Shown piece after piece: positions 39,672 through 47,488 of a stretch of DNA of 47,488 nucleotides (position 1 is the first letter of the stretch; every line of letters begins with the position of its first letter). Source of the DNA: Pseudomonadota bacterium (GTDB taxonomy: Bacteria; Bdellovibrionota; FAC87; UBA2466). The position numbers and the translations under genes are program-made. Where the stretch lies: the NCBI GenBank assembly GCA_043767805.1, contig JAYUGC010000186.1, positions 1-47,488 of the forward strand, written 5' to 3'. Under the pieces are notes generated by a model. The model was not told the origin of the DNA and did not search any database. It worked only from the letters and a program-made list of their open reading frames with translations.

Positions 39672-40226
39672 CTAATCCTGGGGGGCTTTGGGCGTGGCGC
39701 CGAACTTCCCGTTTTGGGGGTCGAGGTATTGGTTACCCTGCTTGAAGGACTGAAGGAACATCAGGGAGACGCCCACCACGATGGCGGCATCGGCCACGTT
39801 GAAGGCGGGCCAATGGTAGTCCTTCCAAAAGAAGTCGAGAAAATCGACCACGAAGCCAAAACGCAGGCGATCGATGAGGTTACCCACGGCGCCGCTGACG
39901 ATGAGGCTAAGCGCGGTCGCGGTCAGGATTTGCTTCGAATCGAGCTTCGCGAGCACGAAGCCGATGACGAAAAGCGCGATGACCGGAACGATGATGAAAA
40001 AAGGATCGCGAAAATACGCCGGGGCCCGATGCAGAAGGCCAAAGGCTGCGCCGGTATTACGCACATAGGTCAGCGAAAAAAAGTTCGCGAAGATGGGGCG
40101 GCTTTCGCCCCAACGAAACCCGCTGTGGACGATGTGCTTGGTGTACTGGTCTATGACTAGAACGACGAGTACGACGCCGATCAAAATGAACCATTTGCGC
40201 GAGTCACGTGGGTTTGCTGCGGTCAT
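39672..40226 (-). CDS. lspA: Lipoprotein signal peptidase II (copy 1)
   Basis: DQYTK, NTGAAFG, GAVGNLIDR, VVDFL, WPAFNVAD. Confidence 0.95.
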   Translation of the reverse strand: MTAANPRDSRKWFILIGVVLVVLVIDQYTKHIVHSGFRWGESRPIFANFFSLTYVRNTGAAFGLLHRAPAYFRDPFFIIVPVIALFVIGFVLAKLDSKQILTATALSLIVSGAVGNLIDRLRFGFVVDFLDFFWKDYHWPAFNVADAAIVVGVSLMFLQSFKQGNQYLDPQNGKFGATPKAPQD

Positions 40227-40714
40227 GCCTTCTCCGGGCGTTCTTGCTTCAAGGTATTATAGAACATCAAAGCCACCCCGGCGATGATAGCGAAATCGGC
40301 GATATTAAAGGCGGGAAGCTTCACGGAGCTCCCCAAGTGAAAATCCAGAAAGTCGATGACGTAGCCGTACTGGATTCTATCGAGGAGGTTTCCCGTCGCG
40401 CCGCCCAGAATGCTGGTGAGCGCCAAAGACGTCAGCATCTGGTTGTCTTGCAGCTTAATGAAGATGAGGACGATGAGGATCAGGGCGAAGACCGGGATGC
40501 CGATGAAGAACACGTCCTGTAACGACGGAGGAACCTTCTGCATGAGGCCGAAAGCGAAACCGGGGTTCTGCGTATGGGAGAGGCTCATGAAGCCCGGGAT
40601 GAGCCAATGGCGCACGCCTATGGCGAGCTTGCTGTGGACCAGGTGCTTCGTCAGCTGATCGCAGGACAGAATGAAGCCACTGAGTGAGAAGAGGATCAGA
40701 TATTTTTGCTTCAT
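40223..40714 (-). CDS. lspA: Lipoprotein signal peptidase II (copy 2)
   Basis: DQLTK, NPGFAFG, GATGNLLDR, VIDFL, PAFNIAD. Confidence 0.95.
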   Translation of the reverse strand: MKQKYLILFSLSGFILSCDQLTKHLVHSKLAIGVRHWLIPGFMSLSHTQNPGFAFGLMQKVPPSLQDVFFIGIPVFALILIVLIFIKLQDNQMLTSLALTSILGGATGNLLDRIQYGYVIDFLDFHLGSSVKLPAFNIADFAIIAGVALMFYNTLKQERPEKA

Positions 40715-42793: not shown

Positions 42794-45133
42794 ATGGTTA
42801 TCGGAAAAACCGAATCCAAAAAGGCAAAACCGCGCCCCACTTTTTCCCTCGCGCATCCGCCGCAAAATAAAATCGTGCGCGAAGTGTGGCGCCTCGTTTG
42901 GCTCGCGCTCGGCGTTCAGGTGATTGCTTCGTTGCTGAGTTTTTCTCCCGCAGATCCTTCGTGGAGCACGTGGTCTTCCACCGCGAAGTTTAAAAATTGG
43001 GTAGGGCGCGCGGGCAGCATTCAAGCTGATCTCTTGCTGCAACTTTTCGGCTTGCCTGCTTTTGCTTTGGGATTTTTGCTGCTTCGCCTGGCGTTTCGCA
43101 AAGTTGGGAACTACGGCGACAACTCGAAACGAGTCGTGCTCATCCCTGGCGCATTTTTACTTTCCCTCTGCGCCGTCGCGCAGACGGCTCTGCCGAGCGC
43201 GTGGATTCCTTGGAAGCTCGCCAACGGCGGCGGCGTCACGGGCCAGCTCATTCAAAGCGGTCTGGTCTATGCCCTGGGTGCGCCCGGCGCGGTGACCGCG
43301 AGTGCCCTGCTTCTCCTTGCCTCGACGATACTTCTCTTCGAATGGCCCGTACTTTCCGCGCTGGTCAACGCGCTACGGGAAACCGCAGACGACTTCAAAG
43401 CGTGGTGGATGGAATTTAAAGAAAAGCAAAAGACGCAAAAAACCACCCCGCCCAAGATGGCGATGGCTGCCGTACCGGGACTCGCCGCCCTTCCCGCGCC
43501 TCGCACGGAACGAGTCGTTTCTCCCTCTAAGAAAGCCGAAGGGGAAGAAGACGAGTCTCCGCTCATCATCGAAAGCGGTCTCGATGGCGCCGTCAAAGAT
43601 TTGCCTGACTTTGTGAGCTTTGAAGTTAAGAAGCCCAAATCCGCGCCGCCTCCGCCGAAACCGGTGAGCCGCGATCCGAATCGTAAATACGAACTGCCGC
43701 CGGTGAGCTTGCTCTCCAAAAAGAACGCGAAGAACGCGAAACCAATCGATCGCGCCTGGTTCCTCGAAAAAGGTCAAATCCTCGTCGAAAAACTGAAAGA
43801 CTTCGGCGTCGAGGGCGAAATCGTCAATATCTCGCCCGGACCGGTCATCACCGTGTACGAGTTCAAGCCGGCGAGCGGCGTGAAGATCAAAGACATCGCC
43901 AATCTCTCCGACGATCTCACGTTAGCGCTCAGCGTGATGAGCGTGCGCATCGTCGCGCCCATCCCGGGCAAACCTGTCGTCGGTATCGAGATCCCCTCGC
44001 CCGAACAGCAGATCGTTTACTTCCGCGACCTCATCGAAGAGACGCCGTTCTACGAGCCGAAAATCCGTATTCCGATCCTCTTGGGCCGTCTTGCTTCGGG
44101 CGAGCCGGTTGTAGCCGATCTCGCTTCGATGCCTCACTTACTCGTCGCGGGAGCGACGGGTACTGGCAAATCGGTATTCATCAACGCGCTCATCTCGAGC
44201 CTTCTCTATCGCTATACGCCGAACGATTTGCGGCTCATCCTCGTCGATCCAAAAATGGTCGAGCTCTCTAACTACGAAGGCATTCCGCATCTACTCCTCC
44301 CGGTCGTCGTCGATTCGAAGAAGGCCGTCATGGCGCTTCGCTGGGCCGTGGATGAGATGGAACGGCGCTATTCGATTCTCCACGGAGCGGGCGAGCGCCA
44401 CATCCACGCTTACAATGACCGCCTTCTGAACGATCCGCCGGAAGTCAAAGAAGGCGAGACCGCTCCCGAGACGTTGCCGTTCATCGTCGTTATTATCGAC
44501 GAGTACGCGGACCTCATGGCGGTCGTGCAAAAAGAAGTCGAGATCCTGATTACCCGCCTCGCTCAGAAAGCGCGCGCGAGCGGCATTCACCTGGTGCTCG
44601 CGACCCAGCGCCCGTCGACCGACGTGGTGACGGGCCTCATCAAGGCGAACTTCCCGAGCCGCCTGTCGTTCCGCGTGGCTTCTTCCATCGATTCGAAGAC
44701 GATCTTGGACCGTACGGGCGCCGAGCGCTTACTCGGTAACGGCGACATGCTCCTGCAATCGGCGGGCTTTACTATGCTCCGTCGTATGCAAGGCTCTTTC
44801 ATCTCGGACGACGATACCAACAAGGTCGTCGACTTCCTGAAGAGCCAAGGTGAGCCCTTGTACGATGAGCGCATCCTGCAACGCATCGAGAACGAAGAGA
44901 TGGGCCTGGAAGAAGGCTCTTCCGACGGAGAAGAAAGCAGCGGACGGCTTTACGATCAGGCCGTTCGTCTCGTCGTCGAAAAGGGAGAGGCGAGCATCTC
45001 TCTCATTCAGCGCCATTTGAAAATCGGCTACAACCGCGCCGCCACTCTCATCGAAGAGATGGAGAAGGAAGGCGTCGTTGGCCCGTCGAGCGGAGCCGGG
45101 AAACGCCGTCCGGTCCTCGTCGGTCAGATTTAA
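42794..45133 (+). CDS. ftsK: DNA translocase FtsK
   Basis: N-terminal TM domain (SFSPADPSW, NWVGRAG), MPHLLVAGATGTGKS, IIDEYADLM, ATQRPS, gamma domain SISLIQRHLKIGYNRAA. Confidence 0.97.
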   Translation: MVIGKTESKKAKPRPTFSLAHPPQNKIVREVWRLVWLALGVQVIASLLSFSPADPSWSTWSSTAKFKNWVGRAGSIQADLLLQLFGLPAFALGFLLLRLAFRKVGNYGDNSKRVVLIPGAFLLSLCAVAQTALPSAWIPWKLANGGGVTGQLIQSGLVYALGAPGAVTASALLLLASTILLFEWPVLSALVNALRETADDFKAWWMEFKEKQKTQKTTPPKMAMAAVPGLAALPAPRTERVVSPSKKAEGEEDESPLIIESGLDGAVKDLPDFVSFEVKKPKSAPPPPKPVSRDPNRKYELPPVSLLSKKNAKNAKPIDRAWFLEKGQILVEKLKDFGVEGEIVNISPGPVITVYEFKPASGVKIKDIANLSDDLTLALSVMSVRIVAPIPGKPVVGIEIPSPEQQIVYFRDLIEETPFYEPKIRIPILLGRLASGEPVVADLASMPHLLVAGATGTGKSVFINALISSLLYRYTPNDLRLILVDPKMVELSNYEGIPHLLLPVVVDSKKAVMALRWAVDEMERRYSILHGAGERHIHAYNDRLLNDPPEVKEGETAPETLPFIVVIIDEYADLMAVVQKEVEILITRLAQKARASGIHLVLATQRPSTDVVTGLIKANFPSRLSFRVASSIDSKTILDRTGAERLLGNGDMLLQSAGFTMLRRMQGSFISDDDTNKVVDFLKSQGEPLYDERILQRIENEEMGLEEGSSDGEESSGRLYDQAVRLVVEKGEASISLIQRHLKIGYNRAATLIEEMEKEGVVGPSSGAGKRRPVLVGQI

Positions 45134-45167
45134 GTCATTCCTCTAACCCAACATCCAAGGAGTCCCC

Positions 45168-45296
45168 ATGAAGCGCAGTAAGGCTTTGCTGTTCTTAAGT
45201 GTCCTCGTCCTATTAGGAGCTCTCACCACCCTCACCCGCTGCGGGAGCGGTTCTGTCGGCGATATCGCGGCAAGTTTCAACGGAATCAAATTCTAA
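45168..45296 (+). CDS. Unannotated 42-aa small lipoprotein (below the ORF-track cutoff)
   Basis: AAGGAG RBS at 45157-62; MKRSKALLFLSVLVLLGALTTLTR-CGSGSVGDIAASFNGIKF*; the stop TAA overlaps the AAGGAGG RBS of the next gene. Confidence 0.75.
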   Translation: MKRSKALLFLSVLVLLGALTTLTRCGSGSVGDIAASFNGIKF

Positions 45297-45305
45297 GGAG
45301 GCACC

Positions 45306-46457
45306 ATGAAACCCACTCTACTTTTAACTCTCCTGTCTTTCGCGGGGCTCGCCTACGGTTCCGCGGGGTTCATCACGCCGTCCGAGATGACGATGACTTT
45401 CACGGGCGCCAGCCTGACAACGGTAGACAATAGTCGTAAGACGATCGTTGCCTCCGGCACGTATCCCATCACCTTTAAAAAAACGGACACGGACTTTGCC
45501 GCGGTTACAGTCGGCACTGCTGGAGTCGAAGCGGGTCGCTACATCGGCGTTCAGATTTGCTACAACTCCGCGCGCTCGGTGAAAGTGAACGGCGACATCT
45601 ACGACGGCCCGACGAGCGGTGCCATCTCTAGCGGCACAGCGCTTTATTCCACCGGCACCGAGGCCACCGCCGCGGGCTCGGTAACGACATCGGTAACCGC
45701 GTCTCCCACGACGCTCGCCAATTACACGGTGGGGAACGGAACGAGCCAATGTTCCGAGTCCTATTTCGTTAAACCCGTTTGCGTGACCACTTCGGGTACG
45801 ACCGGGTGTGAAGCAACCGATACGGTAATCGACACCAGCACAACGCCGCCTAACCTCTCCGTCATGCTCGATATGTACGACAGCGTCGGCGTGGATGCGG
45901 CGACGGGCGCGCTCGACGCGCACGTTCCTATCTATCCGTACCCTGCTTTCGGTAAGCCCGGCGCGGCCGTTCATTTGCGCAGGTCCTCAGGTGGCAATAT
46001 CGGCAACGTGAGCCTAATCTTCGGGTCGGACGGAAATCTCGTCTACTCCTCGCTCTACCAAAGCGGAAGCAATACGGGCTTCTGTAGCATTGGGGGCGGC
46101 GTGGGCTTCGTCACGACGACGGCGGTGCCTTCGGGCGGTTTCCAAAACGCCTACGGTCCGTCGGCCGTTCAAAAAGATACGGCGGGCAAGATCGAGTTCG
46201 CCTCGGGCGGATGCGGCACGGGAAGCACGTGCACGTCGAGCGGGCTTCAAACCATCACCAACTACAAAGTGGGTGTGCCCAATACCACGGCGGTCGATTG
46301 CCTTCCGGATACCACCGGAGCCCTCGGGTTCACCTATACGGGCACCGCGGCCGTATCTAGTCCGGGGACAATTACCGTCAAGCGCATCATCGACCCCAGC
46401 AATATCCTCGGTGGTATCTGCACCACGGGTGGCGGCATTTGCGGCGACTATCTCTAA
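45306..46457 (+). CDS. Secreted Thr/Gly/Ser/Cys-rich beta-strand-rich hypothetical protein
   Basis: AAGGAGG RBS; SPI signal ending AYG; 10 Cys; C-terminal GGIC-TT-GGGIC repeat. Confidence 0.8.
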   Translation: MKPTLLLTLLSFAGLAYGSAGFITPSEMTMTFTGASLTTVDNSRKTIVASGTYPITFKKTDTDFAAVTVGTAGVEAGRYIGVQICYNSARSVKVNGDIYDGPTSGAISSGTALYSTGTEATAAGSVTTSVTASPTTLANYTVGNGTSQCSESYFVKPVCVTTSGTTGCEATDTVIDTSTTPPNLSVMLDMYDSVGVDAATGALDAHVPIYPYPAFGKPGAAVHLRRSSGGNIGNVSLIFGSDGNLVYSSLYQSGSNTGFCSIGGGVGFVTTTAVPSGGFQNAYGPSAVQKDTAGKIEFASGGCGTGSTCTSSGLQTITNYKVGVPNTTAVDCLPDTTGALGFTYTGTAAVSSPGTITVKRIIDPSNILGGICTTGGGICGDYL

Positions 46458-46936
46458 TCGTCGGTAAAGGCTGGTTTGCGGCGGCGGGGGCGAGTTTCGC
46501 CCTCGCCGCCGATCAGGCTTTGAAAGTCTGGTGCGACACGCACCTGCGCTTATACCAACACGTCTCGCTTTTCCCCGGGCTCGCTGTCACGCGAAATCCT
46601 AATCGCGGTCTCGCCCACGGTTTTTACTCGAACGTTCCTAACGGCTATATCGACCTCTACGTCCGTTACATTCCGAGCGCGGTTTTACTTTGCCTGATGG
46701 GTTTCACCCTTTGGCGATGGCGCGAAGCAAATCGCACGGAACGGCTCGGCTGGTCTTTAAGTCTTGCGGGCGGCGCCTCCAACCTTTGGAATCATTGGAC
46801 GAGTGAGTCTGTCCTGGACACCCTCGCCGTTCCCACCGGGCTCAACTCTAGCCTCGTCTTCAACGTCGCCGACGTCGCTCTCTGTGTGGGCGCGGGCCTA
46901 GTCCTTCTCTCCCTCTTGAAGAAACCCACACCCTAG
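46439..46936 (+). CDS. lspA: Divergent lipoprotein signal peptidase II (copy 3)
   Basis: ADQALK, NRGLAHG, GGASNL, VLDTL, VFNVADV; four TM segments; the canonical NLxDR reads NLWNH; TTG start uncertain. Confidence 0.8.
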   Translation: MRRLSLIVGKGWFAAAGASFALAADQALKVWCDTHLRLYQHVSLFPGLAVTRNPNRGLAHGFYSNVPNGYIDLYVRYIPSAVLLCLMGFTLWRWREANRTERLGWSLSLAGGASNLWNHWTSESVLDTLAVPTGLNSSLVFNVADVALCVGAGLVLLSLLKKPTP

Positions 46937-46951
46937 TCCAGACTCCGGGGC

Positions 46952-47488
46952 ATGCGTGCTCTGTGTAGTCTTTTGCTCTATTGTCTTCCTCTCCTCGCCG
47001 CCCCCGCGGCGAAGCCCAATCCCGCGCTTCCCGTTGTCGATAAGATGCAAACGACTTGGGACGCGGCCAAAACTTACGAAGCGAAGTTCAAACAGAAGGT
47101 GACCGCGAAACGCATGGGCACTGAGGACGAGAGCGAAGGCACCGTGGTCGTTTCGAAGCCCAATCGCCTGCGCTGGGTATCTGTCACTGACGGAACCTTC
47201 CAGATTTTGAACGGAAATCGGCTGACGGCGGTGCGTGAGAACAAGCGCCGGCAGATTACTGAAGTCGACATCTACGCCAAGGCGGGGAAGTCGATCGACA
47301 GTAAATTGCTGAAATTCCTGGCGGGAAAGGCGCAGTTCAAGACCCTTTACCGCTTCGAGCTGGAATCCGAAACCCCTGAGATTGCTACGATAAAGTTCCA
47401 CGGCAAGAGTGGTGACGCGGAGACCCTTATTGCGGAAATAGACAAGAACAGCTATCTTCTCCGGTCTTTAACGACGGACAGCGAAGAT
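46952..47488 (+). CDS. lolA: Outer-membrane lipoprotein carrier LolA (3' truncated by window; not in the ORF track)
   Basis: MRALCSLLLYCLPLLA signal; YEAKFKQKV, SEGTVVVSKPNRLRW, ILNG motifs; ftsK-lolA synteny. Confidence 0.85.
   Translation, partial: MRALCSLLLYCLPLLAAPAAKPNPALPVVDKMQTTWDAAKTYEAKFKQKVTAKRMGTEDESEGTVVVSKPNRLRWVSVTDGTFQILNGNRLTAVRENKRRQITEVDIYAKAGKSIDSKLLKFLAGKAQFKTLYRFELESETPEIATIKFHGKSGDAETLIAEIDKNSYLLRSLTTDSED

Follow-up and report, generated by a model that had tools for sequence, protein, structure and literature searches.

A cassette of three genes between ftsK and lolA was analyzed in the window, by which the whole 47,488-nt stretch is meant (contig JAYUGC010000186.1, assembly GCA_043767805.1, from an uncultured environmental bacterium of the Bdellovibrionota, a lineage of predatory-type bacteria). 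Read from the plus strand, the cassette consists of a small open reading frame (ORF) for a 42-aa precursor resembling a prolipoprotein, a gene for a 383-aa protein predicted to be secreted, and lspA3, which encodes a divergent paralog of signal peptidase II (LspA). The features of the locus are as follows.

39672-40226 and 40223-40714, minus strand: tandem canonical lspA1 and lspA2, presumed to be the housekeeping copies (PF01252, 139.9 and 128.3 bits)
42794-45133, plus strand: ftsK, upstream context (Pfam FtsK_SpoIIIE, FtsK_4TM, FtsK_alpha and FtsK_gamma)
45156-45161, plus strand: AAGGAG, Shine-Dalgarno-like sequence of the small ORF, 7 nt 5' of the ATG at 45168, as read from the sequence
45168-45296, plus strand: small ORF, 42 aa, micro-prolipoprotein-like precursor
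45295-45301, plus strand: AAGGAGG, Shine-Dalgarno sequence of the 383-aa gene overlapping the TAA stop of the small ORF, as read from the sequence
45306-46457, plus strand: ORF of 383 aa, predicted secreted all-beta protein
46439-46936, plus strand: lspA3, 165 aa, divergent signal peptidase II paralog (PF01252; TTG start)
46952-47488, plus strand: lolA, downstream context, running off the window (PF03548, 39.2 bits)

The ORFs and their coordinates bore out the initial annotation, which had described three same-strand genes tightly packed between ftsK and lolA, with the Shine-Dalgarno sequence of the second overlapping the stop codon of the first and with a third LspA overlapping the 3' end of the second. 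The gaps from ftsK to the small ORF, from there to the 383-aa gene, to lspA3 and to lolA are 34, 9, -19 and 15 nt, respectively, the negative value being the overlap of lspA3 with the 383-aa gene. On the 5' side of ADQ (residues 24-26), the motif conserved in LspA proteins that comes first in lspA3, the TTG codon is the sole ATG, GTG or TTG start. The spacing from ftsK to lolA reads as an operon layout and was counted in favor of a module. The two canonical lspA genes reported nearby were also present, as a tandem pair, but 4.5-5.5 kb away, somewhat nearer than the ~6 kb first given. A search of the cassette stretch for promoter-like sites was negative, and terminator-like sites there were no more numerous than in shuffled sequences. 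Recent horizontal transfer was considered, and composition gave no sign of it, the GC content of the cassette (0.54-0.62) being close to that of the flanks (0.55-0.61). DNA contigs from three sediment-metagenome runs of one study matched the cassette stretch without differences; the part from ftsK as far as the 383-aa gene is spanned by one contig, and the part from the 3' end of the 383-aa gene over lspA3 to lolA by others. The runs listed for the stretch included none of RNA.

The product of the small ORF was found to have a basic n-region (MKRSK), a hydrophobic h-region and an L-T-R-C-G box containing Cys25; its mature part of 18 residues ends in NGIKF. It had no match in Pfam (no family at E ≤ 1) or in NCBIfam. 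When the small ORF was aligned over 12 loci, Leu at position -3, Cys at +1 and Gly at +2 were invariant, Arg at -1 and the penultimate Lys were kept in at least 90% of the sequences, and a C-terminal K-F was present in nine. Arg occupied the -1 position in 11 of the 12, and the exception, with Gly, was the locus that lacks LspA3. Among 5.8 billion proteins searched with a profile, there were 14 further members of 36-67 aa, every one with an L[PTS]RCG box, in which the Cys was invariant, and a [KQ][FY] end; five of them carry a source name, in each case "hypothetical protein". For one close pair of loci, the small ORF differed at 17 codons, 16 of the differences being synonymous and one non-synonymous. 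Because the frame and its features were kept over 12 loci and 14 database entries, with a 16:1 excess of synonymous changes, these alignments identify the small ORF as a genuine gene under purifying selection. Its earlier designation as a lipoprotein gene stood in part. The charged n-region, the hydrophobic h-region and the invariant Cys at +1 are those of a prolipoprotein, but the L-T-R-C box departs from the canonical lipobox, in which Gly, Ala or Ser stands at -1 in place of Arg.

The recurrence of the cassette was then assessed from its largest secreted component. A HMMER search of 1.84 billion representative sequences gave 63 relatives of the 383-aa protein at E ≤ 1e-3, 52 at E ≤ 1e-10 and 26 at E ≤ 1e-30. 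No homolog was found in 40 relatives of the organism, the same genus included, and no paralog in its own genome. A family-profile scan of 401 genomes of the phylum found the 383-aa family in only six, distributed over three families; one GTDB record of the family is a metagenome-assembled genome labelled Bdellovibrionales, and a scan of JGI metagenomes added four loci. The searches that gave this record and the JGI loci used the five closest rows of the 17-row family alignment. Ten distinct loci with a gene of this family were obtained in total (the window, L053, which equals L056, L054, L057, L058, L059, L060, L061, L062 and L063).

In all 10 loci, a small ORF lies directly 5' of the 383-family gene at a distance of no more than 20 nt, and its box is L-x-R-C-G in nine of them. 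A gene of the LspA3 clade abuts or overlaps the 3' end of the 383-family gene in eight of the nine loci that could be assessed, L062 ending too early. LspA3 is missing from a single locus (L059, genome G199), and there the box of the small ORF is a canonical L-P-G-C; the only two high-scoring LspA genes of that genome are of the canonical type. The co-occurrence for which the initial annotation had suggested a search was thus present, and the opposite finding, 383-family homologs lacking their partners, was made once for LspA3 (L059) and never for the small ORF.

A profile of the LspA3 clade was built from nine LspA3-type sequences and run on the same 401 genomes. Its scores were bimodal: seven genomes gave at least 202 bits, the next best gave 99, and canonical copies gave no more than 91. 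The clade was without a representative in the other 394 genomes, among them the same-genus relative. All seven genomes of the clade have a small ORF with an R-C box 5' of lspA3, either adjacent to it or with a 383-family gene between them. A two-gene form was found in G003 and G013, which belong to another genus; here a small ORF with the sequence M-L-S-R-C-G is followed by the LspA3-clade gene. Linkage of these genes is therefore an observed property of the loci, and the trio is a real and conserved module whose genes are very probably linked in function.

The enzyme encoded by lspA3 was compared with its canonical counterparts. The genome contains exactly three PF01252 genes, all of them inside the window, and the products of lspA1 and lspA2 carry the motifs GNL(I/L)DR and FN(V/I)AD. 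LspA3 matched PF01252 with 73.3 bits, above the gathering cut-off of 25, over profile positions 4-141 of 142. It was aligned with the two canonical copies and with Staphylococcus aureus LspA (6RYO), and the list of conserved residues was taken from PMC6952399. The catalytic dyad of LspA3 is intact, D127 (VLDTL) and D145 (FNVAD) corresponding to Asp118 and Asp136 of the S. aureus enzyme. An early suspicion that a catalytic Asp had been lost (the Asn in SNLWNH) was wrong, the dyad being formed by the Asp of V-x-D and that of FNxAD, both of which are present. Twelve of the 14 highly conserved LspA residues were retained rather than all 14. The differences are Asn118 in place of Asp109 and His119 in place of Arg110 (LspA3 numbering first, S. 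aureus numbering second). The His at the Arg110 position was invariant in nine of nine members of the LspA3 clade.

According to PMC6952399, Arg110 and Asp136 of S. aureus LspA hydrogen-bond a globomycin amide that imitates the lipobox beside the scissile bond, and Arg110 contacts globomycin and myxovirescin alike. In the same source, the R110A variant was inactive and R110K retained 50% of activity, and all of the active-site mutants reported there as tested were more sensitive to globomycin, none less. When 71 LspA sequences were placed in a quickly computed maximum-likelihood tree, 13 rows were separated from 58 canonical copies with an SH-aLRT (approximate likelihood ratio test) support of 97; the 13 rows comprise the nine LspA3 sequences and four of a related SNLxSR type, and the careful tree search was incomplete.

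The 383-aa protein was predicted to have a signal peptide of the signal peptidase I (SPI) type (..LAYG|SAGF). Full-length relatives were mostly 380-470 aa long. All members inspected have a signal peptide of this type at the N-terminus and, after it, a conserved G-F-V-T-P, and a fusion of the protein with the small peptide was found in none of them. Several Cys residues are conserved in the family, as are the motifs LDxY-x-SVGVD and PGAAxHL. Searches of Pfam and NCBIfam with the protein gave no match, and a Pfam search with 17 family members was also empty. Its AlphaFold2 (AF2) model, made with 17 sequences, was all-beta and confident, with a mean predicted local distance difference test (pLDDT) of 85.3 and a predicted template modelling score (pTM) of 0.82. 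An N-terminal beta-sandwich (residues ~20-215) and a C-terminal 8-stranded beta-barrel (~217-370) were discerned in it, and the N-terminal domain folded alone gave a pLDDT of 83.4.

Structural comparison of this model did not assign the protein to a family. Foldseek gave no match in the PDB at E ≤ 1e-3. An ESM Atlas search gave only weak rows, with scores of 0.79 or below; a lead from it to DUF4382 (row 0.77) was dropped after PF14321 was matched by none of 17 family members at E ≤ 5. With VIA-align, only residues 217-370 matched, to many 8-stranded up-and-down barrels. The best match was the barrel of Cap15 (7n34_A; Z 8.3, root-mean-square deviation 2.8, 87 aligned residues), which is generic, and others were OmpW (Z 7.5), avidins (6-7), the TbpB C-lobe (6.1), HpuA (6.0) and hemophilin (5.5). 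As judged from the model, these matches reflect a common arrangement and give no family assignment. The N-terminal domain had no solved counterpart above Z 3.9, the best being MbnP.

Binding of the peptide to the 383-aa protein was studied by structure prediction, for which residues 19-383 of the latter and the 42-aa precursor were supplied with their own unpaired alignments. The interface score ipSAE was 0.91, 0.86 and 0.86 (median 0.86), as compared with 0.01 for the best of three controls, so the co-folding check proposed in the initial annotation came out positive. Of 157 solved complexes, 116 reach the mark used for binding, as against 2 of 215 mismatched pairs; these counts are only rough for runs with own alignments. 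The runs shared at least 57% of their contacts, with a partner pLDDT of at least 53. Only residues 28-42 of the peptide formed the interface, that is, part of the mature peptide and nothing of the signal peptide. On the partner, the interface included the most conserved motifs of the family, 181-190 (with D189) and 214-223 (with H223). The pairs with the lowest predicted error placed peptide residues 36-40 against partner residues 183-188, which is consistent with the modeled peptide adding a strand to the conserved partner strand that precedes D189. Further predicted contacts were made with partner residues 45-76 and with 214-223, the latter including the conserved PGAAxH. The model thus supports binding of the peptide by the 383-aa protein.

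These data are best accommodated if the three genes form a portable module for a two-part lipoprotein, a reading to which we assign a probability of roughly 55%. The 42-aa precursor would be exported, and its Cys25 would be lipidated by one of the Lgt enzymes of the cell. Two Lgt genes (PF01790) are present in the genome (G000:C60:3975-4703 and G000:C76:8012-8725). LspA3, as the module's own signal peptidase II, would then cut the precursor before Cys25; it would do so with an Asp dyad of the usual kind but with His for Arg at the substrate contact, its cognate substrate having Arg at -1. The resulting 18-residue lipopeptide is predicted by the co-fold to bind, through its conserved C-terminal tail (..NG-x-K-F) and by strand addition, the N-terminal beta-sandwich of the separately secreted 383-aa protein, for which it would provide a membrane anchor in trans. 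We infer, in short, that the peptide is lipidated, that LspA3 cleaves it and that it tethers its partner. A link between Lgt copy number and LspA3 was looked for and rejected: two copies are common with or without LspA3 (two in G001, G005, G012, G013, G199 and G376, three in G294 and one in G003, G064 and G373).

The initial annotation had proposed a cassette that supplies both a substrate and the enzyme processing it, with the partner held by the lipopeptide; this was supported by the linkage, by the seven of seven LspA3 genomes and by the co-fold. What did not hold was the necessity of the 383-aa protein, since G003 and G013 retain only the small ORF and LspA3. The proposed surface display of the complex was not supported by any test made here.

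Several observations weigh against the two-part lipoprotein. The two-gene form of G003 and G013 is without a 383-family gene; therefore, LspA3 and the peptide can work without this protein. LspA3 scored 57.9 bits against the lspA equivalog model TIGR00077, below its cut-off of 73.95. The Asn118 of the window enzyme is common only to a 78%-identical relative (P0002), other members of the clade having Asp. In the co-fold, the 42-residue peptide reached a pLDDT of only about 54, in a model made with unpaired alignments. Lipidation of the L-x-R-C box by Lgt is putative. The Gly-Cys box at the locus without LspA3 may serve as a natural control for the pairing of enzyme and box, and it is a single locus.

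The remaining points of this kind concern Arg at -1. A six-frame scan of the genome for lipoprotein-like N-termini gave 392 pattern matches, 280 with Gly, Ala or Ser at -1 and eight with Arg. The eight represent seven distinct sites, four of which belong to sizeable proteins, one of them LemA, so that the small ORF is not alone in having such a box. The other three, of 298 aa (G000:C29:36208-37101), 545 aa (C47:3891-5525) and 305 aa (C3:15882-16796, TTG start), could, from their sequences, be additional substrates of LspA3. LemA of the genome (L065, G000:C169:12492-13076) has Arg at -1, and its orthologs L066-L094 were compared. The -1 residue in the relatives was mostly Gly or Ser, with Arg in G001 and G012, His in G017, and Gln in G011 and G022. 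G001, of the same genus, has no LspA3 (its two PF01252 matches are the tandem pair only, in a genome that is 93% complete), and its LemA nevertheless reads L-P-R-C; therefore, Arg at -1 is no proof of dependence on LspA3. Either the tandem LspAs of the lineage accept R/H/Q-C boxes, or these copies of LemA stay uncleaved. The comparison points to a -1 position that is unusually tolerant in this lineage.

A facultative fourth component was noted at other loci. A gene for a 160-175-aa protein adjoins the module in six of nine assessable loci; the protein had no Pfam match, and ESM Atlas models placed it among 8-stranded outer membrane protein (OMP) barrels of the OMP_b-brl/OmpA-like kind (TM 0.55-0.77). 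In L060 (1608-2654) and L061 (1532-2578), LspA3 and a C-terminal OMP-like domain occupy one 348-aa frame without a stop, and the OMP-like part is preceded by a signal-peptide-like linker. The frame is kept in both loci, and it may be either a true fusion or two genes with a lost stop codon. The OMP-like gene is missing from the window cassette, the sole homolog in the genome being on another contig. It was also found 5' of an SNLxSR-type LspA in L107.

A more far-reaching form of the two-part lipoprotein reading is possible, and we consider it less likely than not. It takes LspA3 for a private enzyme whose specificity has been switched by the Arg-to-His change toward its one substrate with Arg at -1, orthogonal to the housekeeping pathway, the 18-residue peptide being a detachable anchor that joins its partner once they have been exported and the OMP barrel perhaps its docking site.

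Other explanations were weighed against the two-part lipoprotein. The strongest of them, which we nonetheless consider unlikely, regards the peptide itself as the product, a lipopeptide matured by LspA3 and then released or trafficked, for example as a sorting tag, a signal or an agent active on membranes; the 383-aa protein would then be its periplasmic carrier, chaperone or receptor, and the OMP barrel its destination. The two-gene form without the 383-aa protein (G003, G013) agrees with this, as does the OMP-like gene that is adjacent in six of nine assessable loci and in frame with LspA3 in L060 and L061. The C-terminal barrel of the 383-aa protein resembles those of avidins, lipocalins and TbpB, a fold that often holds ligands, at generic Z values of 6-8, and the co-fold result is as compatible with a carrier as with a cargo. 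However, the predicted interface is formed by the N-terminal sandwich and the peptide tail, and the lipid-bearing N-terminus is not placed in the barrel. Moreover, the window cassette is without an OMP-like neighbor, and release of the peptide has no support in the results here.

A general role for LspA3, as a spare signal peptidase II or one insensitive to inhibitors, with ordinary envelope genes as neighbors that happen to share its operon, is improbable. Extra lspA copies are known in producers of LspA inhibitors. Myxococcus xanthus possesses a tandem housekeeping pair lspA1/lspA2 as well as lspA3/lspA4 in the myxovirescin gene cluster (PMC8689077). The genome studied here likewise has a tandem pair and a third copy, the residue changed in LspA3 (Arg110) is the one that contacts globomycin and myxovirescin, and the other R-C box proteins of the genome could be further substrates. 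Against this, no biosynthetic genes were found at the window cassette, whose neighbors are ftsK and lolA, or among the listed ORFs in the immediate flanks of the other loci. In addition, LspA3-clade genes lie only beside the small ORF, in seven of seven genomes among the 401, and the clade is absent from the 394 others, the same-genus relative included, while the S. aureus active-site mutants described in PMC6952399 gained sensitivity to globomycin. Least probable of all is an unlipidated peptide, signal-anchored or cleaved by SPI, with LspA3 as a lipid-independent intramembrane protease or a non-catalytic partner: Arg at -1 is indeed outside the canonical [GAS] (8 versus 280 of the 392 scan matches), and LspA3 is without two of 14 conserved residues, one of which is Arg110, whose change to Ala is reported to be inactivating in S. 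aureus (PMC6952399). However, Cys at +1, Gly at +2 and Leu at -3 do not vary over the 12 aligned loci, a textbook L-P-G-C box is found in the variant without LspA3, the enzyme itself retains the dyad along with 12 of 14 conserved residues, and LemA orthologs swap G/S-C and R/H/Q-C at one site, which suggests that such boxes are functional in the lineage.

The position of the cassette was examined in relatives, 17 of 25 of which have lolA orthologs. ftsK lies directly 5' of lolA (less than ~100 nt) in eight of these 17 loci, and one more, that of the same-genus G001, has a gap of about 0.8 kb containing other genes; in the remaining eight, ftsK was not found inside the 1.5-kb flank of lolA. In G001, the gap (L036:2160-2865) is occupied by a same-strand gene for a membrane protein of 98 aa and by an opposite-strand gene for a Cys-rich secreted protein of 117 aa. 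Neither ftsK nor lolA was found in the available flanks of the 11 other cassette loci. Because these loci are without either gene and the gap of the congener holds unrelated genes, the placement beside lolA looks incidental, one insertion site among many, and the link of the cassette to ftsK and lolA that had been suggested for the window found no support. The ftsK-lolA gap appears to be a variable insertion spot.

Some features of other lspA genes were recorded in the course of the comparison. Tandem overlapping pairs of canonical lspA genes are the rule in this bacterial family (window 39672-40714, minus strand; L008, L009, L014-L016, L018, L028 and L031-L034), and the two copies of the pair form two separate clades in the tree. 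The arrangement resembles that of lspA1/lspA2 in M. xanthus (PMC8689077). The second divergent type, SNLxSR, occurs in L012, L013, L107 and L110 (G023, G012, G142 and G184); it has Ser for the conserved Asp109, keeps Arg110 and groups with LspA3 in the tree. An R-C small ORF was absent from these loci. An acidobacterial protein (P0003) has the motif SNLISR, the same as this type. The spurious translations of ORFs 5' of the SNLxSR-type gene have nearly identical peptide stretches in common across L012 (~1090-1400, reverse complement), L013 (~630-870, reverse complement) and L107 (~540-870), and this similarity suggests a conserved non-coding RNA gene. In a 1.5-Mb genome (L029, G038:C151), the sole match to LspA3 is an LspA with GNFVNR, that is, with Asn for Asp109.

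The components of the module were compared with known systems. LspA3 is like canonical LspA (peptidase family A8; 6RYO/6RYP from S. aureus and the enzyme of Pseudomonas aeruginosa) in its PF01252 match, length class, dyad and 12 of 14 conserved residues. It differs by the clade-wide replacement of Arg110 by His and of Gly105 by Ser, by DT instead of DF after the first catalytic Asp and, in this copy, by Asn for Asp109; furthermore, it scores below the TIGR00077 cut-off, is found only beside one small substrate-like gene and branches separately from 58 canonical copies. M. xanthus is alike in combining a tandem housekeeping pair with extra lspA copies in a specialized gene cluster (PMC8689077), but its extra copies belong to a cluster for antibiotic biosynthesis and are associated with self-protection, whereas here the companions are a micro-prolipoprotein and a secreted protein.

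Among small lipoproteins, the nearest comparison is with entericidins, very small lipoproteins whose precursors of about 40-50 residues consist of a signal peptide, the Cys and a short mature peptide. The small ORF product is similar in size and make-up. It differs by the lack of a Pfam match at E ≤ 1, by Arg at -1, by the conserved C-terminal G-x-K-F and by its pairing with a private LspA and usually also with a predicted secreted binding partner. The 383-aa protein resembles TbpB, HpuA and hemophilin, surface lipoproteins of the Neisserial type that combine a handle domain with a barrel, in being a two-domain all-beta protein with a C-terminal 8-stranded barrel (Z 6.1, 6.0 and 5.5). However, its barrel scores no better with them than with avidins, OmpW and designed barrels (Z 7-8 at the top), which suggests no more than a shared common fold; these proteins carry a lipobox of their own or none, and no Slam-like gene was seen here. 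A full-text literature search found, among the matches listed, no description of a layout with a micro-prolipoprotein, a secreted partner and a private LspA. On the reading favored here, the module belongs to the known lipoprotein pathway, to which it would add a split substrate and a peptidase dedicated to it.

In the usual description, lipoproteins mature by one general pathway, in which Lgt, one LspA and then Lnt process every lipobox. If the two-part lipoprotein reading is true, a conserved LspA paired with a single Arg-Cys micro-substrate would exemplify in nature a signal peptidase II dedicated to one substrate. The reading of the -1 position by LspA would also be opened to direct study, since the Arg-to-His change of the enzyme and the Gly-to-Arg change of the substrate can both be swapped. 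Two unannotated families were brought out, of ~42-aa peptides and of ~390-aa partners, whose members, where named at all, are called only "hypothetical protein". If the co-fold is right, the module would illustrate how a protein can be given a lipid anchor in trans, by an 18-residue lipopeptide with a gene of its own, and such an anchor could serve as a small portable membrane tag.

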